Translations under genes and position numbers: made by a program
The notes under the pieces: generated by a model
Seen by the model: the letters and a program-made list of their open reading frames with translations, nothing else
Told to the model about the DNA's origin: nothing
Database searches by the model: none
Origin: an uncultured Woeseia sp.
GTDB taxonomy: Bacteria; Pseudomonadota; Gammaproteobacteria; Steroidobacterales; UBA11654
Direction: 5' to 3'
DNA length: 64,000 nucleotides
NCBI GenBank assembly: GCA_964454905.1
Contig: CAYVTR010000001.1
Span: 44,436-108,435 of the forward strand
Part shown: positions 1 through 55,763 of the stretch, one piece after another
Layout: each line of letters starts with the position of its first letter
Numbering within the stretch: position 1 is the first letter of the stretch

Positions 1-302
1 CAATAGGGCTTCCATCAATATTAATCCCTTACCCTTATGCAATGGATAATCATCAGTTTTATAATGCTCAATTTCTTGAAAATAAAGGAGGAGCACTAAT
101 TATTAAAGATAAAGACCTTAATCCAGAGATCCTTGCAAAAAAAATTCATAGTATTTTTAACAAAGATAGAAAGTTAGAAAGCATGTCCGAGGCTGCTTTT
201 GATATGAATTTTGTTGATGCAACTGAGAACATTGTTAATTTTTGCTATAAAACTATTGAAAAGCATCGGTTATTTCATCTTCATGATGATTATCCGAATT
301 AG
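1..302 (+). CDS. murG: MurG glycosyltransferase, C-terminal fragment (5' end lies outside the window)
   Basis: The frame from nt 3 reads IGLPSILIPYPYAMDNHQFYNAQFLENKGGALII, the conserved MurG C-terminal region. It sits directly upstream of murB/ddl/ftsQ/ftsA. Confidence 0.85.
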   Translation, partial: IGLPSILIPYPYAMDNHQFYNAQFLENKGGALIIKDKDLNPEILAKKIHSIFNKDRKLESMSEAAFDMNFVDATENIVNFCYKTIEKHRLFHLHDDYPN

Positions 303-307
303 ACGTC

Positions 308-1195
308 ATGGGATTAATTAATTGTCTTCGTAATGAACTCTTATCTAATCATATTTCATGGAAGGTAGGAGGTCCGGCAGATATTTTCTTTATGCCAGAT
401 AATCGTGATGATTTATCTCAATTCTTAAAACTTAACGACGATAAGCCCATCACATGGCTGGGCAATGGAACCAATGTCCTAGTTAGGGATGGTGGTATTA
501 GGGGTGTTGTTATTTCAACAAAAAAATCTATAAATAAGATAAATATCGAAGCTAAGAATTCTTGCCGAGTTGAAGTGGGTGCTTCATGTATGGATTTGGC
601 ATTGTTTGCAGAGAAGAATCAATTGGGACCTGCAGCATTCTTCTCTGGAATCCCTGGATCAGTCGGTGGAGCATTGACAATGAATGCGGGTTCATTTGGT
701 CATGAAACTTGGGATTTTGTTGAGTCTATAGAAGTTATTGACGAAGATGGAGTTATAGATCACTTGGATCCAAAAGATTTCAGGTTTTCCTACAGGACAG
801 TTGAATTTCCCTACCCCCTCTGGTTTGTCTCTTGCCTAATGCAATTTCCTGAATCTGAAACAACCACTAAATCAGAATTGAAAGCAATGAGAGACCAGAG
901 ACTTAAAACACAGCCTCTTAGTGAGGACACTTGTGGTTCAGTTTTCAAGAATCCAGAGAAAGGACATGCTGGAGATTATATTGAGAGAGCAGGCTTGAAG
1001 GGGCATAGAATTGGTGGATCTTCTATATCGACTAAGCATGCAAATTTTATTGTCAATGAGGGTAATGCCACCTCAGCAGATATTGAGGATTTGATTAAAC
1101 ATGTTCAAAGCGTCGTCAAAACCAAGTTTAATGTAAACTTAGAGACCGAAGTCAGAATCATAGGCGAGAAAATTCATGTCGATGACAAATATTGA
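308..1195 (+). CDS. murB: UDP-N-acetylenolpyruvoylglucosamine reductase
   Basis: 295 aa. FAD-binding N-terminus (WKVGGPADIFF) and MurB C-terminal block (CGSVFKNP, AGDYIERAGLKG, STKHANFIVN). dcw context. Confidence 0.95.
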   Translation: MGLINCLRNELLSNHISWKVGGPADIFFMPDNRDDLSQFLKLNDDKPITWLGNGTNVLVRDGGIRGVVISTKKSINKINIEAKNSCRVEVGASCMDLALFAEKNQLGPAAFFSGIPGSVGGALTMNAGSFGHETWDFVESIEVIDEDGVIDHLDPKDFRFSYRTVEFPYPLWFVSCLMQFPESETTTKSELKAMRDQRLKTQPLSEDTCGSVFKNPEKGHAGDYIERAGLKGHRIGGSSISTKHANFIVNEGNATSADIEDLIKHVQSVVKTKFNVNLETEVRIIGEKIHVDDKY

Positions 1196-2096
1196 ATTTG
1201 GAAAAGTTGCTGTTTTGTTTGGTGGTAATTCATCAGAACGAGAAATTTCTCTACTATCAGGTGAAGCTGTTTATAACGCCTTAAACTCAAAAGGAGTCGA
1301 TGTTCACCTAATCGACACCAAAGAACCTTTTATAAAGCGATTATTAGATGAACAATTTAATAGTGTTTGGATAGCCCTCCATGGAGCAGATGGAGAGGAC
1401 GGGAAGGTTCAAAGTTTATTAGAACTATCAGATATACCGTTTACGGGTAGTCGAACCTTGAGTTGTTCTTTGACCATGAATAAGTTATTTACAAAAAAAA
1501 TGCTTACTGCTAATAATCACCAGACACCAGATTTTTTGATATTGGATGACACAACAACTTTCTCAGAAATTTCAGATACTTTAGGATCTCCATTCATTAT
1601 TAAGCCTTGTTCTCAAGGATCTAGTTTGGGTATTTTTATTATCAAAGATGAGGATCAATACAATGAGAAATATTTAGAAATTGATCAATTAAATGATTGG
1701 ATAATTGCTGAAGAATATTTTGATGGACCTGAATACACCGCTGGGTTCTTAGCAGATAAGGTGCTGCCCTTGGTAAAAATTGATGCCAGCAATGAAGAGT
1801 TTTATAACTATGAAGCTAAATACTTTAGTGATGAAACAAAATATATTTGCCCAAGCGAGTTAGATAAAGAGGTTGAAGAGAGTATCAAGAAAGAGTGTTT
1901 AATTATTTTCGAACTTTTTAATATAAGAGGATGGGGAAGAATGGACTTTTTCTTAAATGATGAAAATCGACCGGTGATTCTCGAAATCAATACTGTTCCT
2001 GGTATGACAACTCATAGCTTGGTGCCGATGGCAGCTAAAGCACAAGGAATAGATTTCAACACCCTTTGCTTAGAAATTTTAAAAAGCCAGTCTTGA
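1176..2096 (+). CDS. ddl: D-alanine--D-alanine ligase
   Basis: 306 aa. KVAVLFGGNSSEREISLLSG N-terminus and ATP-grasp C-terminus (EINTVPGMT). Overlaps murB by 20 nt. Confidence 0.95.
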   Translation: MSMTNIEFGKVAVLFGGNSSEREISLLSGEAVYNALNSKGVDVHLIDTKEPFIKRLLDEQFNSVWIALHGADGEDGKVQSLLELSDIPFTGSRTLSCSLTMNKLFTKKMLTANNHQTPDFLILDDTTTFSEISDTLGSPFIIKPCSQGSSLGIFIIKDEDQYNEKYLEIDQLNDWIIAEEYFDGPEYTAGFLADKVLPLVKIDASNEEFYNYEAKYFSDETKYICPSELDKEVEESIKKECLIIFELFNIRGWGRMDFFLNDENRPVILEINTVPGMTTHSLVPMAAKAQGIDFNTLCLEILKSQS

Positions 2097-2860
2097 TTAA
2101 TTTGAGTGTTCTAAAAAAAACTAAGAAGAATAAAAAGAAACAGAGCCGTTTTAATTTTTTTAGTAAATTTCGCCGAAGAAACAAAAACAAACGCCCCTAT
2201 AAGTTTCTTATACTTGTTGTAATATTTGCTCTAATACTGTCGTTTGTTCTGGTGTCTTTGAATCAACCCATTCGTGTGATCAATATAGAAGGAGATTTTA
2301 AGCGAGTCTCATTAAAAGCGTTCCAATCTATTACGTTAGATATTAAAAACGAAGGATTTTTAAGTTTTAGACAATCTTTATTTAGAAAGAAATTGGAATC
2401 CCTTGATTGGGTTCAGTCCGTTCAGTTGACTAAAGAATGGCCTGACACTGTTAATATCAATGTTACTGAAGATGATGTCGTTGGAATATGGAATAATGAA
2501 CTCTTATTGAATTCATCTGGCAGTTTATATGCTTTAGATAAAAGAGTTATTCCAGGCGAGTTAATACAGTTTTTCGGTCCTGACGAGTTAGTTGATCAAG
2601 TCTATAAGCAATTCAAACTGTATAATAATGAATTGATTGCAAGGGGTATTCTAATAGAAAAAATAGGCCTCGATTTAAGAGGCTCTTGGAGTCTAACAGT
2701 GAGACCGGGTATAGAAATCAAATTAGGGGATCTGAACACAGATGAAAGATTTAATAGATTTTTAATGATTTGGGATGAATCTCTATTAGAAAATTTTGAA
2801 TTAATTTCTTATATTGATCTTAGGTATGCAGAAGGTTTTGTGATAAAACGGAAGAATTAG
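2066..2860 (+). CDS. ftsQ: Cell division protein FtsQ
   Basis: Lys/Arg-rich N-terminal tail, one TM helix (FLILVVIFALILSFVLVSL) and a POTRA-like region. Lies between ddl and ftsA. The start is uncertain: TTG at 2066 overlaps ddl, and an in-frame TTG at 2102 is the alternative. Confidence 0.8.
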   Translation: MLRNFKKPVLINLSVLKKTKKNKKKQSRFNFFSKFRRRNKNKRPYKFLILVVIFALILSFVLVSLNQPIRVINIEGDFKRVSLKAFQSITLDIKNEGFLSFRQSLFRKKLESLDWVQSVQLTKEWPDTVNINVTEDDVVGIWNNELLLNSSGSLYALDKRVIPGELIQFFGPDELVDQVYKQFKLYNNELIARGILIEKIGLDLRGSWSLTVRPGIEIKLGDLNTDERFNRFLMIWDESLLENFELISYIDLRYAEGFVIKRKN

Positions 2861-2872
2861 GTTGAAAATATA

Positions 2873-4105
2873 ATGTCCAGAAGTAACTCCACTGAAATCA
2901 TAGCTGCCATTGATATTGGCACATCTAAAATAGTTGCTCTTATCGCAGAGATTAGTGATGATTCTGAGCTAAAAATTATTGGAGCAGGTACCCATAGATC
3001 CACAGGACTAAAGAAAGGAGTGGTTGTCAACATAGAAGCCACTATTGATTCCATTGCTAAGGCCATAGAGCAGGCAGAACAGGTAGCAGAGTGTGAGATT
3101 AATACAGTCTTTGCAGGTATAGCTGGAAGCCATGTAAGAAGCTATGATGGTCATGGTTTTGTCAGAATCAATAGCGGGGAAGTTAACCGTCATGATATAG
3201 CAGGTGCTATTGATGCTTCTAAGGCCATGAAAATCCCCTCCGAAGAAAGGATATTACATGTGTTACCAAAAGATTATGTTATAGACGGTCAGGATGGAAT
3301 TAGAGACCCTATGGGGATGTCTGGTATTCGTTTAGAGGCAGATGTTCACATCGTCACTATCTCAAGAAGTGCTGAGGAAAATATTATTAAGTCGCTTGAA
3401 CGTTGCAATTTGGAAGTGCAGGAAATTGTATTAGAACCTCTTGCATCCAGTATGTCTGTATTAACCAAAGATGAGAAAGATCTGGGGGTTTGTCTAATTG
3501 ATATTGGGGGCGGCACAACTGATATTGCTATTTTTAAAGATGGCCAAATTCTTACGACAAAAGTTATACCTATTGGTGGTGATCATGTAACCATAGATAT
3601 CGCTCATGAGTTGAAAACACCAATTGATAGCGCTGAAGAAATAAAAATAAAACACGCCTGTACACTGTCTCAGTTGAACGGATCTAATGACATGATTGAA
3701 GTGCCAAGTGTTGGTGATCGTGCCCCGAGACAAACAGATTTAAAAGTTCTCTCAACAGTTGTTGAACAGCGTTATCAAGAATTATTTGAAGTTGTATTAG
3801 ACGAAATTGGCAAGATGAACACTGACAACCTTAGAGCCGGTATTGTTTTGACGGGCGGCACTTCACAGCTCAGTGGAGCTGTTCAATTAGCAGAGGACGT
3901 TTTTTCTTCTGATGTCAGGCTGGGTTATCCCCGACAAATGAGCGGGGCTTTTGAAACCATAAATAGCCCAGAGAATGCAACTGGTGCAGGGTTACTCTTA
4001 TATGCACTTAAAAAGTTTCGGTCAAACCCTGAAGAATTGATAAAACAAAAGTCCTCTGCCTCGTTAATTGAAAAAACGAAAGCGTGGTTTAACTCAAATC
4101 TTTAA
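2873..4105 (+). CDS. ftsA: Cell division protein FtsA
   Basis: 410 aa. Actin-fold phosphate motifs AAIDIGTSKIVALI and DIGGGTTDIAIF. C-terminal amphipathic tail (LIEKTKAWFNSNL). Confidence 0.95.
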   Translation: MSRSNSTEIIAAIDIGTSKIVALIAEISDDSELKIIGAGTHRSTGLKKGVVVNIEATIDSIAKAIEQAEQVAECEINTVFAGIAGSHVRSYDGHGFVRINSGEVNRHDIAGAIDASKAMKIPSEERILHVLPKDYVIDGQDGIRDPMGMSGIRLEADVHIVTISRSAEENIIKSLERCNLEVQEIVLEPLASSMSVLTKDEKDLGVCLIDIGGGTTDIAIFKDGQILTTKVIPIGGDHVTIDIAHELKTPIDSAEEIKIKHACTLSQLNGSNDMIEVPSVGDRAPRQTDLKVLSTVVEQRYQELFEVVLDEIGKMNTDNLRAGIVLTGGTSQLSGAVQLAEDVFSSDVRLGYPRQMSGAFETINSPENATGAGLLLYALKKFRSNPEELIKQKSSASLIEKTKAWFNSNL

Positions 4106-4202
4106 TTCTCAATAAAAAACAAACATTTGAGTAATAATCTTTGTTTATGATAGTCTTTAGCTGCTTTAGAGATTTCTAAGAAAAAAAGAGAGGGTTAAGA
4201 TA

Positions 4203-5117
4203 ATGCTTCATCAGCGAACCTTAGGTAAAACAATATCTGCAGCAGGCGTTGGACTCCATAGCGGCGAAAAGGTTGAAATGACCTTAAGACCTGCATCTGA
4301 GGATACAGGAATCCGATTTAGAAGAGTTGATTGTAATCCCTCACAAGAAATTGAGGCTCATGCTAACAATGTCACTGATACTCAATTAGGAACCACTATC
4401 TCCCAAAATAATATTTCAGTTATGACAGTTGAGCACCTTTTAGCTGCTTTTGCAGGATTAGGGATCGACAATGCTTATATTGATATCCATGGACCTGAGG
4501 TGCCTATAATGGATGGGAGCGCAGCATCATTTATTTTATTAGTTGAGTTAGCCGGCATCACAGAACAAAGCAAACCAAAGAAATTTCTTAGGATTAAGAA
4601 AAATATTAGAGTTGAAGACGATGATAAATTTGCTGAGTTTAAACCTTTTGATGGTTACCGACTAAGTTTTCAAATTGAATTCGAGCACCCTATGATTCAA
4701 CATAAACTAACAAAATTTAGCTTTGATTTTTCTACTCTAACTTTCCTAAATGAAATCTCAAGAGCTCGGACTTTTGGCTTTCTAAAAGAGATTGAAACAT
4801 TAAGGGCAAATAATTTAGCTCTAGGTGGGAGTTTAGATAATGCCATTGTCCTTGATGATTATCGTATCTTAAACCAAGATGGATTAAGGTTTGAAGATGA
4901 ATTAGTTAGACATAAAATCCTTGATGCTATTGGCGACTTATATCTTATGGGTCATATTTTAGTTGGGGAATTTAATGGCTATAAATCTGGCCATGAACTA
5001 AATAATAAACTGATAAGAAAGCTTTACGCTGATGAATCTGCATGGGAAGAGGTCGAGGAGTCAGAAATCACTGACATACCTATTTCTTATTGGACCGCAG
5101 CTTTAGGTAAAGCTTAG
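4203..5117 (+). CDS. lpxC: UDP-3-O-acyl-N-acetylglucosamine deacetylase
   Basis: 304 aa. N-terminus QRTLGKTISAAGVGLHSGEKV parallels E. coli LpxC ([21 protein letters not shown]). HKILDAIGDL zinc/active-site block. GAGGG ribosome-binding site upstream. Confidence 0.95.
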   Translation: MLHQRTLGKTISAAGVGLHSGEKVEMTLRPASEDTGIRFRRVDCNPSQEIEAHANNVTDTQLGTTISQNNISVMTVEHLLAAFAGLGIDNAYIDIHGPEVPIMDGSAASFILLVELAGITEQSKPKKFLRIKKNIRVEDDDKFAEFKPFDGYRLSFQIEFEHPMIQHKLTKFSFDFSTLTFLNEISRARTFGFLKEIETLRANNLALGGSLDNAIVLDDYRILNQDGLRFEDELVRHKILDAIGDLYLMGHILVGEFNGYKSGHELNNKLIRKLYADESAWEEVEESEITDIPISYWTAALGKA

Positions 5118-5404
5118 TAAGTCTTTTTAACTAAACACTTTATTTTCTTTGGAACAAATCCTATTTGTTCACAAAGTTTTTTAATTCTTATTTCTTCAAA
5201 GCGTATTTTAGATGAGGCCTCAGGATTAATTGATTCGATAATCAAAACATTATTTTTTTCAAGATATGCATCAGTTATATGCTGACCTAGTGCCCCCATA
5301 TTTTTCTTTAAACTTTTTAAGATGATAGTTTTTTGATCTAAAGATTCTGAGATTTTACTAAAATCACTTAAGTCATTTTTTAATACATCTGAAATGTGTT
5401 TCAT
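5114..5404 (-). CDS. Small DUF721/DciA-like protein (putative helicase-loader family)
   Basis: 96 aa on the opposite strand between lpxC and secA, a position where I recall DUF721 genes in other Gammaproteobacteria that lack secM. The pattern LGQHITDAYLEKNNVLIIESINPEASSKIRFEE...L...G...KKIKCLV fits my memory of DUF721. Not verified by HMM. Confidence 0.45.
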   Translation of the reverse strand: MKHISDVLKNDLSDFSKISESLDQKTIILKSLKKNMGALGQHITDAYLEKNNVLIIESINPEASSKIRFEEIRIKKLCEQIGFVPKKIKCLVKKTY

Positions 5405-5532: not shown

Positions 5533-8244
5533 TTGAAAGAATTATTTAAAAGAATTTTTGGTAGCAGCAATCAAAGATTATTGAATCAGTATTCTAAGAT
5601 TGTTCATCAGATTAATACCTTAGAGGATGAAATTACTAGCTTAAGTGATAGTGATTTATTAGCAAAAACAGATGAACTCAAATCCCTTTATGAGTCAAAT
5701 AAAGATCTAGATAGCTTTTTACCGATGGCTTTCGCAGTGGTCAGAGAAGCTTCAAAAAGAACCATCGGGCTTAGGCATTATGATGTTCAATTGATTGGAG
5801 GCATCACTTTGCATCATGGGAAAATCTCTGAGATGAAAACCGGAGAAGGCAAAACTTTGGTTTCAACATTACCTGCTTATTTAAATTCATTATCTGGTAA
5901 TAGCGTGCATATTATAACTGTTAATGAATATCTCGCAGAAAGAGATGCTGAATGGATGAGACCTATTTATGAATTTTTAGGTTTAACAGTGGGCTGTATT
6001 AAATCAAACCAGAATCATGCGGAAAAGAAAGCGGCCTATGAATGCGATATTACTTATGGCACAAATAATGAGTTTGGTTTCGATTATTTAAGAGACAATT
6101 TATCTTATGAAAGCGAATCACAATCTCAAGGTAAATTAGCTTTTGCTATTGTTGATGAGGTTGACTCGATTCTTATTGATGAAGCAAGAACCCCTTTAAT
6201 TATTTCTGGTCAAGCAGATCAAAGTACTGATTTATATCAAAAAATGAATTCAATAGTTAGCCAATTAAACCCTGCAATAAGTGAATCAGAGACAAATGAT
6301 TACACGATTGATGAGAAAACTAAACAAATCTACCTCACTGAAACAGGACATTCAAATGTAGAAAAGATTTTAATGAAGATGGGTTTATTGGAACAGGGTG
6401 AAAGCTTATACGATCCAAAAAATATAAGATATATGCATCATATTAACGCAGCAATTAGAGCACATAAACTCTTTAATAAGGATGTCGATTATATTGTTAA
6501 AGATGGTGAGGTAGTCATTGTTGATGAATTCACTGGACGAACCATGGCAGGCAGACGTTGGTCAGATGGTCTTCATCAAGCGGTTGAAGCAAAAGAAAGA
6601 TTAAGGATTAAAGAAGAGAATCAAACCATAGCATCAATTACATTCCAGAACTATTTTAGACTCTATGAAAAACTCTCTGGAATGACTGGTACTGCTGACA
6701 CAGAGGCTTTTGAATTTGATCAAATTTATGGCTTAGAAGTGGTTGTTATACCAACTGATGAACCAATGATTAGAGATGATCAGGCTGATTTAGTGTATTT
6801 GAATATGGAAGGGAAGTTTAAAAATATTATTAAAGATATTAAGAATAGACAAGAAAAAAATCAGCCAATTTTAGTTGGAACTGCCTCAATAGAAAATTCG
6901 GAGTATATTTCAAATCTATTAAATAAAGAAGGCATTAAGCACGAAGTACTAAATGCCAAACAACATAAAAAAGAATCAATAATAATTGCACAAGCAGGAA
7001 AACCAGGTGCAGTGACCATTGCTACCAATATGGCAGGAAGAGGAACTGACATAGTACTGGGTGGTAATTTTGAGGCAGAATTGAAATTATCTGGTAATGA
7101 AATCAGCGACGAGAAAATGGCACTTCTCAAAGACGATTGGCAGAAGAAACATGATGTGGTTATTGAAGCTGGGGGACTGCATATCATTGGCACTGAACGT
7201 CATGAATCAAGAAGAATTGATAATCAGCTTAGAGGACGAGCTGGTCGACAAGGTGACCCTGGTTCAAGTAGGTTTTATTTATCTCTAGATGATGATTTAT
7301 TGAGAATTTTTGGTGATCCGGAAAAAACACAGAACATGTTATCTCGAGTTGGCATGGAGGAGGGCGAAGCTATAGAGAGTAATTTGCTGACACGTCAAAT
7401 AGAAAGAGCTCAAAGAAAAGTTGAATCACATAATTTTGACATGAGGAAAAATCTTCTTGAATATGATGATGTTGCGAATGATCAAAGAGCAGTTATTTAT
7501 CAATTAAGAAATGACATTCTTACTGCAGAAAGTATCAACGACATGCTTGAAGGGATAGGCGAAGAAGCTATTCAAGAATTGACTAGCCAATACGTTGATC
7601 CGGATTCCATGGAAGAAACTTGGGATCTTGATGGTTTGAGTCAGTCTATCTATAACGATTTTATGATTTCTTTAGATCTTGAATCAATGATAAATCAAGA
7701 TGATTCATTAAATGCTGACAATATTTGGAAGGTTATTTTTGAAGAATTCACACGAAACTACAGCGCTAAAGAAAGTTCAATAGGCGAAAGACCAATGAGA
7801 GAAATTGAAAAGGCTGTAATGCTTCAGCAACTTGATATGCAATGGCGCGAACACCTAGCAGCAATGGATCATTTAAGACAAGGGATTCATCTAAGGGGTT
7901 ATGCACAAAAGAACCCAAAACAGGAATATAAAAGAGAATCTTTTGAAATGTTCTCTTTTATGATGGATCAGTTGAAATTTAATGTAATTAGTATTCTGTC
8001 TAGAGCGCGATTCAGAGGTGAAGAAGATGCAGAGACTGTGAATGAGCAAATGCCAAATGTTGATGAGGTTCAACTTCAACATAAAGATGCTTCTATATTT
8101 AAGTCTGCCGATACTAAAGCCGAACCTGTACAAAACATAACTAAACCTTTTATAAGAGATCAGAAGAAAATAGGAAGGAATGAACCATGCCCCTGTGGTT
8201 CAGGCAAAAAATATAAAAAATGTCATGGGGCTATCGAGCAATAG
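5533..8244 (+). CDS. secA: Preprotein translocase ATPase SecA
   Basis: 903 aa with a TTG start. Motor motifs [27 protein letters not shown] and [11 protein letters not shown]-terminal zinc finger [14 protein letters not shown]. Confidence 0.97.
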
Positions 8245-8250
8245 GTTTTT

Positions 8251-8649
8251 GTGACTATTCATGAAAAGCCTTTGCAGGTAGTCATTGGCATTATAGGTAA
8301 CTCGAAGGGTGAATTTCTTTTATCAACCAGACACACTAAGCCTATCTATGATGATTATCTAGAATTTCCTGGGGGTAAGGTTAAATCTCCTGAAACAAAT
8401 GAGGATGCCCTAATCAGGGAGCTTAGAGAAGAGATTACCATCCATGCTGAGGAATTCTACGCAATGGATTCTATTGTTTGTCTATTTGATAACCTTAACA
8501 TTGAACTTCATCCTTATAGGGTTAAAAGTTTTTCAGGTAAGCCCATGGCTAATGAAGAAGAGGATATTATATGGGTGAGTAAGGAGCACCTTAAGGAGAA
8601 AAAAATCTTACCTGGAAGCATAGAGGTTTTTGATAATTTATTAAGCTAG
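8251..8649 (+). CDS. mutT: Nudix hydrolase, MutT-like 8-oxo-dGTP diphosphatase
   Basis: 132 aa with a GTG start. Nudix box GGKVKSPETNEDALIRELREEITI. Directly downstream of secA, the classical secA-mutT arrangement. Confidence 0.8.
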   Translation: MTIHEKPLQVVIGIIGNSKGEFLLSTRHTKPIYDDYLEFPGGKVKSPETNEDALIRELREEITIHAEEFYAMDSIVCLFDNLNIELHPYRVKSFSGKPMANEEEDIIWVSKEHLKEKKILPGSIEVFDNLLS

Positions 8650-8650
8650 A

Positions 8651-9421
8651 TCAACAAAGAGAAATTTTGAAATCAACATTCTCTTGATATTGCTGATAAT
8701 TATCGTCACCAGTGTTTTCAAAAAATCGAACGGCAATCAAGTGCTTGCCACCACTAATTTCAGGGAATATTTTCTTATTTTTTAGAAAAATTCTCACAAG
8801 TGAAATTTGAGTTCGCCTTTCTATTTGATGATTATATTGACCTCCGACAGCTATCGTTGCAATTGGTTCACTGCTTTCCCTTATGATCCACATTAATTTA
8901 TCAATGCCTTCACTAATTGGACGGACAATATCAACCCAAGTAGTGATTTTTTTACTAACAAGTCTCTTATCTCCTTCAAGAAAAAATTTGTATTTAGGTA
9001 AATCAAATTCAGCTTTACCACCTGGTAAAGTATGTCGATGTAACAAAGATGCAAGAAATTCATCTGTCCTTAACCGGGTCAGGTAATCAGTTCCTATATC
9101 AACTACCTCTTCTTTAATTAATTCTAGATCTTCAAGGATATTTGTCACCGTATTAGAATCAGCATCAGGAACCGACTGAAATCGTTGCATTTGCATTATG
9201 TATCTATCCAAATCTGCTAAAACTTCTCTGCGCACATCAGTTCTAGATAAAATTGAATATATTTCCAAGATAGTATGAATGACTGTCCGAGTTTCCCAAC
9301 TATCTTTTAAATCAGATGAGAAGTATCTTAGGCGAGCATAAAGGAATTCAATTCTCATGAATGTCCTTAGTCTTTCGTTTAATGGGAGTTCATATACTCC
9401 TTGTTCCATACATAAAGCCAA
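8651..9421 (-). CDS. zapD: Cell division protein ZapD (FtsZ-ring stabiliser)
   Basis: N-terminus YELPLNERLRTFMRIEFLYARL matches E. coli ZapD (FEHPLNEKMRTWLRIEFL). Adjacent to coaE as in E. coli. The true start is more likely the Met at 9409 (MEQGVYELPLNE). Confidence 0.85.
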   Translation of the reverse strand: MALCMEQGVYELPLNERLRTFMRIEFLYARLRYFSSDLKDSWETRTVIHTILEIYSILSRTDVRREVLADLDRYIMQMQRFQSVPDADSNTVTNILEDLELIKEEVVDIGTDYLTRLRTDEFLASLLHRHTLPGGKAEFDLPKYKFFLEGDKRLVSKKITTWVDIVRPISEGIDKLMWIIRESSEPIATIAVGGQYNHQIERRTQISLVRIFLKNKKIFPEISGGKHLIAVRFFENTGDDNYQQYQENVDFKISLC

Positions 9422-9473: not shown

Positions 9474-10076
9474 TTATAAAGTGCTGTAAAAATCGTTTAG
9501 TTGTATTACTTCAGTTTTGAGTTGATCAAAACTGGTACCTTCTTCATTAACAATGACATCATCACAAATTGCTCTTTTGCTCTCTAAATTTGCTTGGTTT
9601 TCAATAATGCTCTGAGCTTGTTGTTTAGTGCAATTGTCTCTTTTAATCAATCGCCTGATTTGAGTTTCAATTGAGCAATCTATAAGTAAAACTCTATCCA
9701 TTAATTTATTCATGCCTGTTTCAATCATGAGAGGGACAGCGATTATTAAATAAGGCGCAGTTGAATCAGAGATATTGTTATTAATTTCATTAAGTACTTT
9801 TGGATGGATTATATTTTCTAAGGCTTTTTTTTCAGCTACATCATTAAATATTATTGATCTTAATTGCTGTCTATCTAATTCGCCATCTAATCCAAGTATT
9901 TTTTTACCAAAATGATCTAAAATTTCTTCGAAAGCCAGACCATCCTTTTTTGTTATATCGTGTGATATTTTGTCTGCATCGATGATTTCAACAGATAGTT
10001 GTGAGAACAAGTCACAGACAGTTGATTTACCTGAAGCAATGCCACCTGTTAATCCAATTTTTAAAGTATCGTTCAT
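9474..10076 (-). CDS. coaE: Dephospho-CoA kinase
   Basis: 200 aa. P-loop IGLTGGIASGKSTV. coaE-zapD synteny. Confidence 0.9.
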   Translation of the reverse strand: MNDTLKIGLTGGIASGKSTVCDLFSQLSVEIIDADKISHDITKKDGLAFEEILDHFGKKILGLDGELDRQQLRSIIFNDVAEKKALENIIHPKVLNEINNNISDSTAPYLIIAVPLMIETGMNKLMDRVLLIDCSIETQIRRLIKRDNCTKQQAQSIIENQANLESKRAICDDVIVNEEGTSFDQLKTEVIQLNDFYSTL

Positions 10077-17875: not shown

Positions 17876-19525
17876 ATGAAAACACAGCTTCTGACAGTTC
17901 TCTTAGCCTTAAGTCTCTCGTCTTGTGCAATACAACCTCCGATTCAATTTGATGATGAGAGCTATTCACGTGGTGTTGCTGATGAAGGAGTGAATAGTTC
18001 TGGACCCAGTTTCGTTGATTACGACAATGATGGTGATATGGATATTTATGTTTCTACCGAATACCACGGAGATAATCAGGGTAATCGATTGTTTGAGAAC
18101 AATGGCAACGGTGAATTTATCGATGTTGCCGTTAAGCGGGGGGTTGATAATAAGGGAGGTTTAGGCCGAGGGGCTTCTTGGGGCGATTATGATAATGATG
18201 GTGACATGGATGTCGTGATCTCTAATATGCCCCCTTCAGATCGATCAACTCATGTTCCAACATCATTGTATAAAAATCTTTTAATTGAGACAGGTAGTCC
18301 AAATTTTGAAAATGCTTCAAGAGAAGCAAATTTATTTAGGAAAAACTTTCCTAATGATCAAGAAATAGGCGGTATCGGTAACACTGGTGCAGGGGTGGCT
18401 TGGGCAGACTTTGATAATGACGGCGATCTTGATCTGTATTGGAAGTGTGCAGAATATGATATTGATAACGCTCTTTTTAGAAACAACGGTGACGGCACAT
18501 TCACTGACATTACTGAAGAATCTGGGACCGGCATCTTGGACATGGTGACTGAAGCCAATTCACAGGGTTCTCCTAACTGGACTGATGTTAATCAAGACGG
18601 ATTAATCGATCTTTTGGTGACCAATGAGGGCGATCGAAAAATCATGCTATTAAACCAAGGTGACAGCACTTTTAAAAACATAACAACCTCTTTTAGGCCG
18701 CCTTCAGCTACAGTTTTTCTAAACCCTGGTAATGCCAATGGCGCATGCATCGGGGATATTGATAATGATGGTGATATGGATGTTTTCTTTCCTACCGCTG
18801 ATCAATCAAATCGTTTGTATATTAGTTTGTATAAAGACACGGGCTCAGTTCAGTACAAAGACATCACGTTAACTTCTGGAATAAGTCACAAATCAGGTGC
18901 ACGCGGATGTGCAATGGGTGATTTTGATAATGACGGCTTGCTGGATATTTACGTTAATAACGGAGGATTCCAAGACACACTGATTAATGATGTAATCGAT
19001 TTACCTATATTTGTTCAGTTCTATATAGCTATCGAGCCTGATTACAATAAATTATTCATGAACAATGGTGACCTGACTTTTTCTGACCTGACCAACCGAT
19101 CGAAAACCAAAGGGTTAGGGATTGGCAGTGGGGTCGGAGCTGCTGATATTGATGATGATGGATTTTTGGATTTGTTTTTTACTAACAGGACTTTTTATTC
19201 CTCAGGCAAACAAATCACTCCATCAGACCGTAATTTCTTGCTGAGGAATCAAGGCAATAACAATAATTGGATAAAACTTGATTTAGTGGGTAATGAAAGC
19301 AATAGAAACGGTTATGGAGCCAAGATTAAGTTAGTTTCAGGCTCATTGACTCAGTATCGGGAACACACCAGCGCCCATGGCTATAATTCAGCTAATGATT
19401 ATAGAGTGCATTTTGGTCTTGCAGATAACACCTCAATAGACTTAATAGAAATTCAATGGCCCTCTGGGAAAATTAGTGAATTAAATAATCAGGAGATTAA
19501 TCAAATATTGACTCTAAAAGAATGA
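17876..19525 (+). CDS. FG-GAP/VCBS seven-blade repeat lipoprotein with C-terminal ASPIC/UnbV domain (CRTAC1 family)
   Basis: Lipoprotein signal LALSLSSC. Seven DxDGDxD-type calcium-loop repeats (YDNDGDMDIYV, YDNDGDMDVVI, FDNDGDLDLYW, VNQDGLIDLLV, IDNDGDMDVFF, FDNDGLLDIYV, IDDDGFLDLFF). C-terminal NRNGYGAKIKL...HGYNS...HFGL block of the UnbV/ASPIC type. Confidence 0.8.
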   Translation: MKTQLLTVLLALSLSSCAIQPPIQFDDESYSRGVADEGVNSSGPSFVDYDNDGDMDIYVSTEYHGDNQGNRLFENNGNGEFIDVAVKRGVDNKGGLGRGASWGDYDNDGDMDVVISNMPPSDRSTHVPTSLYKNLLIETGSPNFENASREANLFRKNFPNDQEIGGIGNTGAGVAWADFDNDGDLDLYWKCAEYDIDNALFRNNGDGTFTDITEESGTGILDMVTEANSQGSPNWTDVNQDGLIDLLVTNEGDRKIMLLNQGDSTFKNITTSFRPPSATVFLNPGNANGACIGDIDNDGDMDVFFPTADQSNRLYISLYKDTGSVQYKDITLTSGISHKSGARGCAMGDFDNDGLLDIYVNNGGFQDTLINDVIDLPIFVQFYIAIEPDYNKLFMNNGDLTFSDLTNRSKTKGLGIGSGVGAADIDDDGFLDLFFTNRTFYSSGKQITPSDRNFLLRNQGNNNNWIKLDLVGNESNRNGYGAKIKLVSGSLTQYREHTSAHGYNSANDYRVHFGLADNTSIDLIEIQWPSGKISELNNQEINQILTLKE

Positions 19526-38821: not shown

Positions 38822-41134
38822 CTATTTTATGGGTTTAATTTTAGGGAATCCCCACGGGGTTTTCCAAGGGGCTCTGAGATAGGTTGTGTCTCCATCTTTT
38901 TCAAATATTCCTAGGTATTCAATTTGCGGGTGTTTTACTAGTTCTTTTATGTCTGAAAATTCAACTGCCCAAACTTCATAACGGTTAAAGATTTCTAAAA
39001 CTTGCTTTGATGACATTGTTGTTAAGTATTTATCCCAAAGTGGGCTTGCATCGCTTGCTTTGGTTCCTACTCCAAAAGAATTCCACCAATTCTTTACTAG
39101 GATTTCATCTTCCATGAATTCATCATACATTCCAAATTCCTTAATCATTTTATGGAAGTTATCTTCAGTAAGGGCAGGAGAAGGGGTCGCAAAAATAGAC
39201 TTATCTTTAGTCCGTTGACCAAAGTTAGAGCCGGCAGTTTCATTTTTACAGAAATTTCCTTCCCAACTGTCTGGGTTACTCATTCCTGACCATTGAAGAG
39301 TTTTTAAAGACATCATCGTGCCCAGCATGCTGCCTGAAACTTTTTGTCCATTGCCGGTTTGTAACCGATGATAAAGAGCAGCTAGAATAGCAATAAAGTT
39401 CATTGCTGCGGTACAACCAGCAACAACATCCGCACCCACTCTAATGGGTTCTCCTCCAACATCTCCTAGTGTGCGAAGATATCCAGACATAGCTTGGATA
39501 CTCAAGTCACTCCCAGTCTGATTTTTCATTGGACCATGATGACCAAAAGCGGACAGTGAAAAATTAATGATTTTTGGATTAAATGATTTTAGTTTTTCAT
39601 AGTTATAGACAGAAGATTCATTTGCATCTTCTTTCCAGTCCTCTATCAAGATATCGGTTTCAGACAACATGGATTCAAATTCTTGTCGACCCTTGTCTGA
39701 TTGAATGTCAACTTCTTTAATAGTCTTATTGCGATTAAATGATTGATACAAGGCGCTGACCCCATGTTTTGTTTGTGGGCTTAGTTCTTTGGACCAATCT
39801 CCACCGACCGGTTCAATTTTTGTTACTTCAGCACCAGCCTCTGCAAGCATAAAGCTTAAGTAAGGTCCGGTGTAACCCTCGGTAAGGTCTAGAACACGTA
39901 TTCCTTTCAGCGGGTATTCGGCTTGATCTGTTTTTGCAATAGTCTCTTTTTTTGTAGAATTTTTGAAGCCATTACTCATGGCGTCTTCAGTGTCTGCTCC
40001 AGGCACAGGTATATTAAGATCTATTTGAGGCGGGCTTTCGCTAAACTCCCATGGTAGTCCACCAACATGAAATGGACCAGTGTGCTCACCATCAACTTCA
40101 ACAAGGAAATTGTTTTCGATAATTTGCTGATGTAATTGAAGATCGTCAAAGCATAAATCAAAACTGTGAGGAATGTTTTCATTATCAAATCTTAATGCCC
40201 ACCAACGTGATGGTTTTAAAAGAAATTGTGATTCAAGAATTTGATCTAACTCATCGCGGTTTTTTATTCGATCAACATTATTAATAAACCTGTCATCTTC
40301 AATTAAGTTCTCCATTTCTATTGCTCTGCAAAACCCTAACCATTGATCTTGGTTTTCACATGTGACTGCTATGTATTTATTATCTAAGCATAAATAACAT
40401 CGATTTGGAGCTGAGTTTGAAGAGCCACTGCCGAGTGGTTCTAATTCAGAATCAGCTAACAATACTTCTGAAACTTTACTGTTCATGTTAGCTAGTGCAT
40501 TAGCTAGATGTGAAGTTCTTACCCAACAAGCATGCCCGAAGCGCTCCCTTTCTATAAGGCCAAGCATTAATAACCCACAGAAAAAAATTGCCCCAGTCGG
40601 ATCTAAATGAGTGAAACGAATTAATTGACCGTCTCCACCCCTTGATCCGGTGACACCACTCATTCCACTGAAGGCTTGAAGATGTGGTTCAAGTGCTGCT
40701 AAATTTTTCATGGGCCCGTCATCGCCATAACCAGAGCTAGAGCCAAAAATCAGATTTGGATTTGATGCATGAAGTGTTTCATAACCAATACCCATTCGAT
40801 CAGCGACACCAGGTCTAAAATTTTCGATGAGAATATCTGCTTGATTTGCTAAGTTCAGCATAGCGTTCATGCCTTCAGGTTCTTTAGTATTAAGACCTGC
40901 AGATTTTTGGTTAAGGTTTGTAGAACTGTAAGCAGTTGAGAGATTATTTTGATGTGGGTAGAGCATTCTAAGGAATTCACCTTTTGGAGGTTCCACTTTG
41001 ATAACTTCTGCTCCAAGATAACCCAGTAAGGTTGCAGCCCATGGGCCCACGATTGAAGTGCCAATACTTAAGACTTTAATTCCTGCAAGAGGTCCTTTAT
41101 TTTCCTTCACTTTATCTCCAAAATTGGTGTTCAA
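38822..41134 (-). CDS. Tandem-duplicated family III CoA-transferase (two CaiB/BaiF-type modules in one chain)
   Basis: 770 aa. Module 1 opens GPLAGIKVLSIGTSIVGPWAATLLGYLGAEVIKVEPPKG. Module 2 opens YPLKGIRVLDLTEGYTGPYLSFMLAEAGAEVTKIEPVGGD at about residue 405. Each module has a GxGxxGP...QAxSG block. Confidence 0.85.
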   Translation of the reverse strand: MNTNFGDKVKENKGPLAGIKVLSIGTSIVGPWAATLLGYLGAEVIKVEPPKGEFLRMLYPHQNNLSTAYSSTNLNQKSAGLNTKEPEGMNAMLNLANQADILIENFRPGVADRMGIGYETLHASNPNLIFGSSSGYGDDGPMKNLAALEPHLQAFSGMSGVTGSRGGDGQLIRFTHLDPTGAIFFCGLLMLGLIERERFGHACWVRTSHLANALANMNSKVSEVLLADSELEPLGSGSSNSAPNRCYLCLDNKYIAVTCENQDQWLGFCRAIEMENLIEDDRFINNVDRIKNRDELDQILESQFLLKPSRWWALRFDNENIPHSFDLCFDDLQLHQQIIENNFLVEVDGEHTGPFHVGGLPWEFSESPPQIDLNIPVPGADTEDAMSNGFKNSTKKETIAKTDQAEYPLKGIRVLDLTEGYTGPYLSFMLAEAGAEVTKIEPVGGDWSKELSPQTKHGVSALYQSFNRNKTIKEVDIQSDKGRQEFESMLSETDILIEDWKEDANESSVYNYEKLKSFNPKIINFSLSAFGHHGPMKNQTGSDLSIQAMSGYLRTLGDVGGEPIRVGADVVAGCTAAMNFIAILAALYHRLQTGNGQKVSGSMLGTMMSLKTLQWSGMSNPDSWEGNFCKNETAGSNFGQRTKDKSIFATPSPALTEDNFHKMIKEFGMYDEFMEDEILVKNWWNSFGVGTKASDASPLWDKYLTTMSSKQVLEIFNRYEVWAVEFSDIKELVKHPQIEYLGIFEKDGDTTYLRAPWKTPWGFPKIKPIK

Positions 41135-48399: not shown

Positions 48400-49890
48400 C
48401 TAGATCGTCGGCTTAATGTTTGCATTTAATCTGAATAAATTGGTTGGATCATATTTATTCTTGATTTCAACAAGTGTTTCATAATTACCAAGAAAATTGA
48501 GATTGACATCTTTTTGGCTTTCAGAGAATTCATCATTGATATAAAACCCATCCGTATATGGCGAGACTGTTTTCCAGTATCTTCTGGACCAAGCCATATG
48601 TGGTGCTGTATCGACCCCGACAGTCCAAAAGGAACCCGTGATCAAATTGTGTTCAGCATATCGACTAGGGAATGCTGTTGCATCTGAAGCGATGGTGTTG
48701 ATTTTTCCACCTGATTGCTGAAAGAAAGCCATACTTCCTCTTTCTGGATGAGCCTCAAGGTTTTCGACGAGGGCATCAATTAAGCCATCTGAAATATTGA
48801 TTGTATATCCGCCTTTTAGATACTGCGATGCTCCTCGCGGGTCATCATCATCGCCACTCTTTTGTAAATCACGATAGTCAATAATATCTATCTCATCATG
48901 AATCACCTTACCTGCTTTACGCAGAGGTGCGAAGGCCTTATCAGCATCTTTATGTGGCCCCGAGTAACAAACATCAAAGTACACTGTATTTCCATATCCC
49001 ATAGGTGGAGCAAAAACAACAGGATCTTGATACATATCCCATGAGGCTTCTAGAGAATGCTCCCCATGAAATCTTAATAATTGCTTAACATCTTTAAAAT
49101 CAAATGTGATTCTGCCTCCAATAACATCCTTATTCATCTCATGAAGTTTGAATTCAAATGTAGTAACTATTCCGAAATTGCCACCACCACCTCTGACGGC
49201 CCAAAAGAGGTCAGGGTTTTCGTTTTTGTCTGCATATCTTAACTCGCCATCTGCAGTGATGATTTCAATGCTTTTCATGTTATCTAATGTTAGTCCATAT
49301 TTTCTGCCCAATCTTCCAAAGCCACCCCCTGTAGCTAGACCGCCAACACCGGTGTGAGAAACAGTTCCAGCTGTTGTTCCCAGTCCATGAGGTATGGTCG
49401 CCGCATCCACTTCACCGAGCCATGACCCACCTTTTATAAAAAGTCTTTTATTTGCTTTGTCCAGTCTAGTCCCTCTGAAAGGGGAGAGGTCAATCATTAG
49501 ACCTTGGTCACATGTGCCTTTTCCAGAAACACTATGACCGCCGCATTTCACTGCCGTTAAAAGGCTAAATTCTCTTGCAAAATTTACAGCTTTTTGAATG
49601 TCAGTTTCATCAACACATTGAGCAATAAGGGCCGGTTTTTTATCGATGATTCTGTTTCTAACCAATCTAGCAACATCGTATCCATTATCATCTTGTAACA
49701 GCAGTGTGCCCTTAAGGCTGTTTCTAAGGTTTGTTATATCGGCCTTTTTAAGTATGAGATTATCACCATCGCCAGTAATCGCTAGTAATTCACTAGGTAT
49801 TAGATTTTCAGCTGAATATCCTCTCCATGAGGGGAACAGCATAGCTGAAACTGCCATGCTTGAATTAGTGATAAAATCTCTTCTTTTCAT
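48400..49890 (-). CDS. Tat-exported FAD-linked oxidase of the VAO/BBE (berberine-bridge-like) family, copy 1
   Basis: 496 aa. Tat signal MKRRDFITNSSMAVSAMLFPS. FAD_binding_4 blocks (VKCGGHSVSG, GTTAGTVSHTGVGGLATGGGFG, RGGGGNFGIVT). C-terminal BBE-type tail (YDPTNLFRLNANI). Confidence 0.85.
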   Translation of the reverse strand: MKRRDFITNSSMAVSAMLFPSWRGYSAENLIPSELLAITGDGDNLILKKADITNLRNSLKGTLLLQDDNGYDVARLVRNRIIDKKPALIAQCVDETDIQKAVNFAREFSLLTAVKCGGHSVSGKGTCDQGLMIDLSPFRGTRLDKANKRLFIKGGSWLGEVDAATIPHGLGTTAGTVSHTGVGGLATGGGFGRLGRKYGLTLDNMKSIEIITADGELRYADKNENPDLFWAVRGGGGNFGIVTTFEFKLHEMNKDVIGGRITFDFKDVKQLLRFHGEHSLEASWDMYQDPVVFAPPMGYGNTVYFDVCYSGPHKDADKAFAPLRKAGKVIHDEIDIIDYRDLQKSGDDDDPRGASQYLKGGYTINISDGLIDALVENLEAHPERGSMAFFQQSGGKINTIASDATAFPSRYAEHNLITGSFWTVGVDTAPHMAWSRRYWKTVSPYTDGFYINDEFSESQKDVNLNFLGNYETLVEIKNKYDPTNLFRLNANIKPTI

Positions 49891-54281: not shown

Positions 54282-55763
54282 TTAAATAATTTCCTTAAAT
54301 TTTTCTTCAATAGTTTCCAAAAGTTCGGGAAACTCTTCTCTGAGGCATGCAATATTCATTTTTGAAAATGGTTTGTCAGTTTGGCTTTCTGTAGCATTTC
54401 TGGTTGCATCAATGATGATCCTGCTCCCTACGCCCTTTTCAGAGGAACTGGGATCTCCACTCAATGCATTAGCATTGTCAATTATTTCTGATGACCTCTG
54501 CGGCTGCCATCTTGACCCTAGTGCATGAAGCACCTGATTTAAGTTATGTATATCAACATCCTCATCAAGGAGAACGGTTATTTTTGCAATTTTCAAAGAT
54601 GTAGATATAGATCGACCTATATCAAAGGTTTTCTTAGTGCTAGTTGTTTTTATTTTTGCAAAACAAAAACCTGGAAATTCTAGTGGATAGTGTAAGCCAA
54701 TGAAATCATCAAACTCGTCACGATACTTTCTGTTCAGATTGGCTTCAATGGGTGCAGTTAAGCAACCTCGGGTAATACCTGTGAATTGATTTGGAACAAT
54801 AGGGTTATGTCTATGTGTGATGGTTTTAACATTCATCAAGAAGTTTTCCTTTTGCAGTTCACCGATGTATCCATACATCTCTCCAAATGGCCCTTCTTCT
54901 TCCATTTCATCAAGAGGTATTTCACCTTCTATGATCAATTCAGCATGAGCAGGCACAGATATAGCTGAGGTTTCACATTTAACAATTTCTATAGCTTGAC
55001 CCATGAGCCCGCCTGCTATAGCTAATTCATCTTCACCATATTTTGCTACTTTTGATCCACTCATGGAGAAAGTGATAGGGTCGGTACCTATTACAATTGC
55101 AACTTGAGCAGTGACTCTTCCTTGTGCTTTTAGTTGTTGAAGAAATTTCCAACCGTCTTGATTCACCTGAGGATTGATCCCAATTTTTTTTGAGCTTTTG
55201 ATTTGGCAACGATAAGTGCCCACATTTCTTCCCAGTTCATTATCCTCCAGAATCACGCTCCCAGTATTGATGTAACACCCATTATCTGCAGGGTTGGTTT
55301 GTAGGAATGGAAAATTGAAAAGATCCATGTTGTCTCCTTCGACAATATTTTCTTTGCACGGTGCCTTACTTGCATCAATGGTTACGGGTTTTATGATCGG
55401 CCATTTGCCATCTTGATCAATATGCTGCTCAATTTTCTCTATTGCCGACTGATAATTTTGTTCTGATGAAGACCCGTAAGGCATGATGCCAAGTGCTAGT
55501 GCCTCAAGATCCCATTTGCCGTATAAATTTCCAACGGATGATTGTTCAAATACATTGTCTCTGGAACGAATTTTGTCGAAAAATAAGACTGGTGCTTCAC
55601 GGACATTGTGTTTTTCAATGATTCGATACATTAAAGCAGTCGCTTCGTAGTTGTTTTGATTAATATCGTCAATATGGAGAATATGACCAAAATGCTCTAA
55701 GGCATCAAGGTATTGTCTTAATGATTGATAAGGGCCGAGATATTTATCCTTCATAAGGATCAA
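54282..55763 (-). CDS. UbiD-family (prFMN-dependent) decarboxylase
   Basis: 493 aa. UbiD blocks DLFNFPFLQTNPADNGCYINTG, NVGTYRCQ, DELAIAGGL, VPAHAELIIEGEI and EGPFGEMYGY. Confidence 0.85.
   Translation of the reverse strand: MILMKDKYLGPYQSLRQYLDALEHFGHILHIDDINQNNYEATALMYRIIEKHNVREAPVLFFDKIRSRDNVFEQSSVGNLYGKWDLEALALGIMPYGSSSEQNYQSAIEKIEQHIDQDGKWPIIKPVTIDASKAPCKENIVEGDNMDLFNFPFLQTNPADNGCYINTGSVILEDNELGRNVGTYRCQIKSSKKIGINPQVNQDGWKFLQQLKAQGRVTAQVAIVIGTDPITFSMSGSKVAKYGEDELAIAGGLMGQAIEIVKCETSAISVPAHAELIIEGEIPLDEMEEEGPFGEMYGYIGELQKENFLMNVKTITHRHNPIVPNQFTGITRGCLTAPIEANLNRKYRDEFDDFIGLHYPLEFPGFCFAKIKTTSTKKTFDIGRSISTSLKIAKITVLLDEDVDIHNLNQVLHALGSRWQPQRSSEIIDNANALSGDPSSSEKGVGSRIIIDATRNATESQTDKPFSKMNIACLREEFPELLETIEEKFKEII

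Follow-up and report, generated by a model that had tools for sequence, protein, structure and literature searches.

The adjacent genes ftsA and ftsZ are among the most conserved gene pairs in bacteria. In Escherichia coli, ftsZ lies distally in the cluster of genes for division and the cell wall (dcw), where it is fed by promoters inside ddlB-ftsQ-ftsA, which is the textbook account of the FtsZ:FtsA ratio. In Mycoplasma genitalium, MraZ binds GTG(G/T) boxes and controls ftsZ directly, and the MraZ operator consists of three GTG(G/T) boxes with 6-nucleotide (nt) spacers (PMC12957436). Here, we analyzed the dcw cluster on a 64-kb stretch of DNA (hereafter the window; contig CAYVTR010000001.1, positions 44,436 to 108,435) from an uncultured marine gammaproteobacterium with a GC content of ~36%, whose relatives include the UBA11654-affiliated metagenome-assembled genomes (MAGs) MED641 and SP335. 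Our reading is that the cluster is intact but rearranged throughout this clade: ftsZ has moved from behind ftsA to a place directly behind mraZ, and the Mur ligase genes have left the cluster. The relocation appears to be shared with SAR86, and control of ftsZ by MraZ is predicted. We give this reading as a whole a probability of about 0.8.

The window begins inside murG, and alignment to the matching contig L001 places its first base at base 9694 of that contig. The first-pass annotation had proposed the order murG-murB-ddl-ftsQ-ftsA-lpxC, with ftsZ and murC missing, and both the open reading frame (ORF) listing and the NCBIfam scans agree with this order:

1..302, + strand: 3' end of murG, a C-terminal match to TIGR01133; the gene (L001:8853-9995) has its start 841 bp before window base 1.
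303..307: murG-murB junction of 5 bp, read from the sequence; E. coli K-12 has murC here (murG-murC-ddlB).
308..1195, + strand: murB, UDP-N-acetylmuramate dehydrogenase, 295 amino acids (aa); NF010480, 343 bits, profile positions 16-301 of 303.
1176..2096, + strand: ddl, D-alanine--D-alanine ligase, 306 aa; NF002378, 350 bits, profile positions 4-300 of 305.
2102..2860, + strand: ftsQ; PF08478 (POTRA_1) and PF03799 (FtsQ_DivIB_C).
2873..4105, + strand: ftsA, 410 aa; TIGR01174, 445 bits.
4106..4202: ftsA-lpxC spacer of 97 bp, the canonical slot of ftsZ.
4203..5117, + strand: lpxC, 304 aa; TIGR00325, 384 bits.

On the matching contigs, MurG is full length (380 aa, PF03033 and PF04101), and ftsQ is called from a TTG at 2102 within a frame that is open from 2066. 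FtsA aligns with E. coli FtsA over its full length at 38% identity. The spacings given in the annotation, 97 bp between ftsA and lpxC and 5 bp between murG and murB, both match the sequence. We confirmed by tblastn and profile scans that neither ftsZ nor murC occupies its canonical slot in the window, and the spacer at 4106..4202 holds no ftsZ remnant: it contains no ORF, and tblastn was negative there. MurB and Ddl are not fusions with MurC, since both match their profiles end to end at 295 aa and 306 aa. Across the 64-kb window, tblastn returned nothing for FtsZ, MurC, MurD, MurE or MurF, with queries comprising E. coli K-12 FtsZ, MurC, MurD, MurE and MurF, and alphaproteobacterial Mur ligases. 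Scanning all window ORFs of at least 400 aa against NCBIfam or Pfam likewise gave no Mur ligase.

The gene that is absent from the window lies upstream of it. We read the upstream order from six independent marine metagenome scaffolds that carry the exact MurB of the window, taking 10 kb upstream in each; they come from three datasets (TARA, SUTE22-1, SCRA20-1) and from several samples. Over 10 kb, the four that were compared directly (L001, L003, L005 and L006) match the window at 99.6-99.95% identity. Upstream, the matching scaffolds read petC-sspA-rsmI-[rnpB]-mraZ-ftsZ-rsmH-ftsL-ftsI-mraY-ftsW-murG. The full cluster is rsmI-rnpB-Pmra-mraZ-ftsZ-rsmH-ftsL-ftsI-mraY-ftsW-murG-murB-ddl-ftsQ-ftsA-(97 bp)-lpxC-secA-mutT-zapD. 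In this arrangement ftsZ (L001:2627-3775, window positions -7066..-5918) is the second gene, between mraZ and rsmH, about 7 kb before window base 1 and ~10 kb upstream of the ftsA-lpxC interval that normally holds it. It is encoded on the same strand as ftsA, begins 15 nt past the mraZ stop with an AGGAG ribosome-binding site before it, and is separated from rsmH by 42 nt. On the contigs matching the window, the 13 genes from mraZ to lpxC are co-directional, with gaps of at most 97 bp. The presumption in the first-pass annotation that ftsZ is encoded elsewhere was therefore correct. Its statement that the ftsA-ftsZ linkage is broken was right as to adjacency, which is lost, but both genes still belong to one co-directional dcw cluster, with ftsZ ~7 kb upstream of the window. 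Division without FtsZ, of the type found in Chlamydiae and Planctomycetes, was considered and is ruled out by the canonical ftsZ 5.9 kb upstream of the window.

The relocated gene has the sequence features of an ordinary gammaproteobacterial ftsZ. The 382-aa product contains the Tubulin/FtsZ GTPase domain (PF00091) and the FtsZ C-terminal domain (PF12327), and its GGGTGTG signature, present as FGGGTGTGASP, is invariant across the clade. The C-terminal peptide, LDVPQFLKRQDA as compared to LDIPAFLRKQAD in E. coli, is of the type that docks FtsA, ZipA and ZapD and is a putative docking site for these three proteins. As the annotation had reported, zapD is retained at 8651-9421 on the minus strand, where we obtained a match to NF003656. 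FtsZ is 53% identical to its E. coli homologue and 43-44% identical to alphaproteobacterial FtsZ, and in a tree it branches among gammaproteobacterial sequences.

These properties bear on the idea that a foreign ftsZ was placed behind mraZ and that the native copy beside ftsA was later deleted. Such a xenologous replacement would lead to an identical end state, and the clade FtsZ is rather divergent, being 53% identical to the E. coli protein and carrying a conserved linker motif that is unusual. However, the protein falls among gammaproteobacterial FtsZ rather than with those of alphaproteobacteria or others, it keeps the gammaproteobacterial-type C-terminal peptide, and FtsA and ZapD, which bind FtsZ, are both kept. 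We therefore consider a replacement improbable.

Two further observations concern this gene. The C-terminal linker of FtsZ is usually variable, and in this clade it contains an invariant motif, F-x3-D-x-P-I-T-x-R-x2-L-x2-T-x-D-x-F (residues 334-354 of the protein encoded at L001:2627-3775), which could be an extra partner-binding site. On two clade contigs, ftsZ is split into two ORFs (L067:7595-8691 and L077:754-1910) by a frameshift or an assembly error; neither contains runs of N.

Having ftsZ at the head of the cluster is a lineage trait, neither an assembly artefact nor a peculiarity of this genome, because the order is fixed in all relatives examined, at FtsZ identities down to 56%. We observed it in 51 JGI metagenome loci, four GTDB species genomes and nine further contigs. 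All 51 JGI loci, with FtsZ 56-99% identical to that of the window clade, keep the order; mraZ and rsmH both flank ftsZ in 42 of them, and 16 extend as far as ftsA without a Mur ligase in between. The GTDB species representatives carry it in 4/4 cases, namely the single-cell genomes AG-447-O13 and AG-365-L08 and the MAGs SP335 and MED641, whose proteins are 56-61% (MurG), 64-66% (FtsZ), 75% (FtsA) and 79% (LpxC) identical to those encoded at the window locus. For SP335 and MED641 taken together, the identity to window proteins is 56-79%. Three contigs picked from the 75%, 72% and 64% tiers of FtsZ identity also show the order. At the other end of the cluster, ftsA adjoins lpxC with no ftsZ behind it in 11 loci (the window and L001-L010). 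MED641 (L010) and SP335 (L009) were handled as belonging to, or closely related to, GTDB UBA11654 (PMC11409719), a group that has been named Taraoceanobacteraceae (PMC7367891). Loci L073, L075, L080, L083 and L087, which carry an FtsZ without recognisable neighbours and come from unrelated lineages, were left out.

The annotation had stated that an arrangement shared by the whole clade would be a lineage trait and not a novelty of this genome, and had named the junctions at 302-308 and 4105-4203 as possible assembly artefacts. Synteny in the relatives shows that the whole clade has the arrangement, and near-identical scaffolds as well as distant relatives carry both junctions. A chimeric join during assembly or binning that dropped ftsZ and murC from the contig might be suspected in a sequence that comes from a metagenome assembly, given that some related scaffolds contain 100-N gaps (L001:7418-7517, L003:7107-7206 and L017:15948-16047). 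However, the window is free of N, the scaffold gaps lie inside mraY or ftsW and away from the junctions, and the junctions recur in >60 contigs from various projects, assemblers and single-cell genomes, at 56-100% identity. Judged by sequence comparison, the probability of such an artefact is negligible. The same 100-N gaps explain why mraY or ftsW calls are missing or truncated in L001, L003 and L017, and they leave the key junctions unaffected.

The annotation was also right that murC is gone, but murC is not alone, as the cluster also lacks murE, murF and murD. All four have disappeared without trace: ftsI abuts mraY, mraY abuts ftsW, and murG abuts murB. We found none of murC, murD, murE and murF in 91 kb, comprising 17.4 kb upstream, the 64-kb window and 10 kb downstream (-17.4 kb to +74 kb). 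Because murA, murB, ddl, mraY, murG, ftsW and ftsI are all kept, the Mur ligases are almost certainly encoded elsewhere in the ~1.5-Mb genome. The order murG-murC-murB-ddl exists in L070 and in a Methylococcales MAG, so that the position of murB beside murG needs only the loss of murC. Further upstream (L017-L019, 1-9000), lptB-lptC-kdsD on the minus strand are followed by bolA-murA-petA-petB-petC-sspA-rsmI; murA thus sits near the cluster and the Mur ligases do not. This upstream neighbourhood presumably matches PA4431-PA4400 of Pseudomonas aeruginosa.

Since the Mur ligases must lie outside the 91 kb examined of the ~1.5-Mb genome, a second cluster might hold them together with the working ftsZ, leaving the head gene as a spare paralogue. 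Yet the head gene has all canonical FtsZ features and a position that is kept across the clade, the sole ftsA seen has no adjoining ftsZ in 11 loci, and the homologues that the FtsZ searches gave for the clade form one graded series without a second type. We consider it unlikely that ftsZ has a second copy, and very improbable that the gene at the head of the cluster is a spare.

Signals upstream of mraZ suggest how ftsZ could be expressed from its present position. The RNase P RNA gene rnpB (class A, RF00010, 323 bits) lies between rsmI and mraZ (L002:1559-1893, window positions about -7978..-7644). Approximately 35 nt past rnpB and just upstream of mraZ, we found a sigma-70 match, TTGACA-16-TATAGT, that agrees at 11/12 positions and is the best in the 16-kb cluster. 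It is directly followed by GTGT-N6-GTGG-N6-GTGG, which we read as three candidate MraZ boxes that fit the published operator in number and spacing. The promoter and the last two boxes (GTGG-N6-GTGG) are invariant in 9 clade members, in a spacer that otherwise differs widely. MraZ itself is intact (PF02381) and 42% identical to E. coli MraZ. No terminator-like site was found between mraZ, ftsZ and rsmH, and the 12 such sites in the 16 kb are not above the shuffle expectation (mean 8.5, SD 2.6). Because a conserved sigma-70 promoter and three MraZ boxes precede mraZ-ftsZ, we infer that a predicted MraZ-controlled Pmra expresses ftsZ as its first structural gene. Operon position and translation signals, and not internal promoters in the ftsQ/ftsA region as in E. 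coli, would then determine by how much FtsZ exceeds FtsA. At the distal end, the ftsA-lpxC spacer contains a block at ~4140-4164, TTTGTTTATGATAGTCTTTAGCTGC, which is kept in distant clade members when the spacers of the window and L007-L010 are aligned and which is probably an lpxC promoter or leader.

A second lineage also has ftsZ at the head of the cluster. Eleven metagenome loci with a GC content of 30-32%, whose FtsZ is 40-45% identical to that of the window clade, have the order sspA-x-rsmI-ftsZ-rsmH-ftsI-murE-murF-mraY-murD-ftsW-murG-murC. We assigned them to SAR86, as the FtsZ homologues of these loci include one named 'SAR86 cluster bacterium'. Three more SAR86 contigs, obtained via MurG homologues, span the whole cluster, which reads rsmI-rnpB-ftsZ-rsmH-ftsL-ftsI-murE-murF-mraY-murD-ftsW-murG-murC-ddl-(ftsQ)-ftsA-rpsF-rpsR-rplI-dnaB. 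As in the window clade, ftsZ stands directly before rsmH and after rsmI-rnpB, and ftsA comes last with no ftsZ behind it. Unlike the window clade, SAR86 keeps murE, murF, murD and murC in their usual places, lacks mraZ, has no murB in the cluster, and continues after ftsA with rpsF-rpsR-rplI-dnaB instead of lpxC. Only 19 nt separate the end of rnpB from the ftsZ start codon (rnpB at L090:9636-9985 and L101:55-405), which leaves no room for a separate sigma-70 promoter. In SAR86, transcription of ftsZ and the dcw operon may thus depend on read-through from rnpB or start at a promoter within that gene.

To place the two lineages, we used neighbour-joining trees of concatenated proteins. A concatenation of MraY, FtsW, MurG, Ddl, FtsA and FtsZ (1,765 columns) groups the window clade with SAR86 in 300/300 bootstraps. 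With Acinetobacter added, a tree of MurG, Ddl, FtsA and FtsZ recovers the same group in 300/300 bootstraps for amino acids and 269/300 under Dayhoff-6 recoding. The nearest relatives of SAR86 (Magnimaribacterales) are marine orders known only from MAGs (PMC11582366), and the grouping agrees with this. As a small concatenated tree places both lineages together, a single ancient relocation of ftsZ, shared by the window clade and SAR86, is suggested.

Two independent moves of ftsZ to a point upstream of rsmH, one in each lineage, would be the alternative. Convergence is compatible with the other derived features, all of which differ (mraZ kept or lost, Mur ligases lost or kept, lpxC or rpsF after ftsA), and UBA11654 is not named among the sister orders of SAR86 (PMC11582366). 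A tree of FtsZ alone joins the two lineages with a bootstrap of just 7%. Against two moves stand the identical insertion point, directly before rsmH and downstream of rnpB, the concatenated trees, and the metagenome survey, in which no other lineage showed this order. We regard convergence as unlikely, although less so than either a replaced or a spare ftsZ.

Several points weigh against the rearrangement and shared relocation that we favor. The poor bootstrap of the FtsZ-only tree is one of them. The concatenated trees were built by a distance method with three other gammaproteobacteria only, for two lineages that are both AT-rich. Sequence signals underlie the predicted operon structure, the predicted transcription of ftsZ from Pmra and the predicted effect on the FtsZ:FtsA ratio, and the single copy of ftsZ, as well as the existence and site of murC, murD, murE and murF, was judged from only 91 kb.

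If the relocation was shared, it would have occurred once, in the common ancestor of the window clade and SAR86. One possible route begins with a tandem duplication of rsmH..ftsZ, which would put a copy of ftsZ directly in front of a second rsmH. If the first rsmH..ftsA copy and the distal ftsZ were later lost, mraZ-ftsZ-rsmH...ftsA-lpxC would be left. Later, the Mur ligase genes would have left the cluster in the window clade, and mraZ would have been lost in SAR86. A broader version of this history is that an ancient transposition made ftsZ promoter-proximal in the ancestor of SAR86 and its sister marine lineages, that positional control replaced the internal promoters, and that FtsZ is now gated by MraZ in this clade and by rnpB read-through in SAR86. 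We put this forward tentatively, as a proposal that is less likely than not to hold as a whole. If true, a single transposition would concern SAR86 and its sisters, which are among the most abundant bacteria of the surface ocean.

The window continues downstream of lpxC with the following features:

5114..5404, - strand: 96-aa ORF, function unassigned; an orthologue 37-43% identical is found at the equivalent position in L007-L010.
5533..8244, + strand: secA; NF009538, 1245 bits.
8251..8649, + strand: mutT-like Nudix hydrolase; NF008044 and TIGR00586, both under curated cut-offs, and PF00293.
8651..9421, - strand: zapD, a division factor that binds the FtsZ C-terminus; NF003656, E 9e-59, 198.9 bits (curated cut-off 213); PF07072 on matching contigs.
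9474..10076, - strand: coaE; PF01121, after zapD in lpxC-secA-mutT-zapD-coaE.
38822-41134: 770-aa protein with two CaiB/BaiF-type CoA-transferase halves, within a catabolic run.
48400-49890 and 56494-57969: two BagG/FevA2-like FAD oxygenases, within the same run.
54282-55763: UbiD-family decarboxylase, within the same run.

The 96-aa ORF matches no Pfam or NCBIfam family and occupies, between lpxC and secA, the slot of E. coli secM, which is encoded on the opposite strand. As a called gene, zapD spans 8651-9409. The catabolic run extends over 34062-57969 and also includes genes for an acyl-CoA dehydrogenase, a flavocytochrome c-like FAD protein and an acetoacetate-CoA ligase. Two other window genes gave no NCBIfam model at E <=1e-40, namely 17876-19525, encoding a 549-aa FG-GAP/ASPIC-UnbV repeat protein, and 58237-60906, encoding an 889-aa TonB-dependent receptor.

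Taken together, a very conserved cluster has a genuine variant here that spans the clade, and ftsZ has not been lost. We found no earlier description of ftsZ beside mraZ, or of the SAR86 dcw order, in full-text literature searches, which did not cover the main dcw survey (Megrian et al. 2022), so that a prior mention may exist. A streamlined ocean clade and SAR86 divide with ftsZ placed at the other end of the operon, which provides a natural experiment on the role of adjacency and of the distal position. Direct control of ftsZ by MraZ is predicted in the window clade, and this prediction is testable because a SAR86 isolate, HIMB1674, exists (PMC11582366). The arrangement also bears on studies that use ftsZ transcripts as an in situ growth index for SAR86 (PMC13349992). 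For annotation, finding no ftsZ next to ftsA in these lineages is no reason to assume gene loss or an incomplete MAG.

We compared the rearranged cluster with the canonical gammaproteobacterial one, whose order we confirmed in E. coli K-12, Acinetobacter, a Methylococcales MAG and the survey loci L069-L072, L074 and L076. As in E. coli K-12 and Acinetobacter (murG-murC-ddl-ftsQ-ftsA-ftsZ-lpxC), the genes run in one direction and begin with mraZ, which is preceded by a promoter with MraZ boxes, and the relative order rsmH-ftsL-ftsI-mraY-ftsW-murG-ddl-ftsQ-ftsA is the same. The downstream synteny lpxC-secA-mutT-zapD is likewise that of E. coli K-12, compared from lpxC to zapD; in the window coaE comes after zapD. 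In contrast to the canonical cluster, the window clade has ftsZ second and not last, its ftsA abuts lpxC, and murE, murF, murD and murC are absent. Its murB follows murG, whereas murB follows murC in the Methylococcales MAG and L070. The Mycoplasma genitalium operon mraZ-mraW-ftsA*-ftsZ (PMC12957436, PMC8475190) resembles that of the window clade in having ftsZ close behind mraZ and a promoter with GTG(G/T) boxes. In Mycoplasma, however, this proximity results from the loss of all cell-wall genes and the order is still canonical, whereas the window clade keeps cell-wall genes and its ftsZ has jumped ahead of rsmH.

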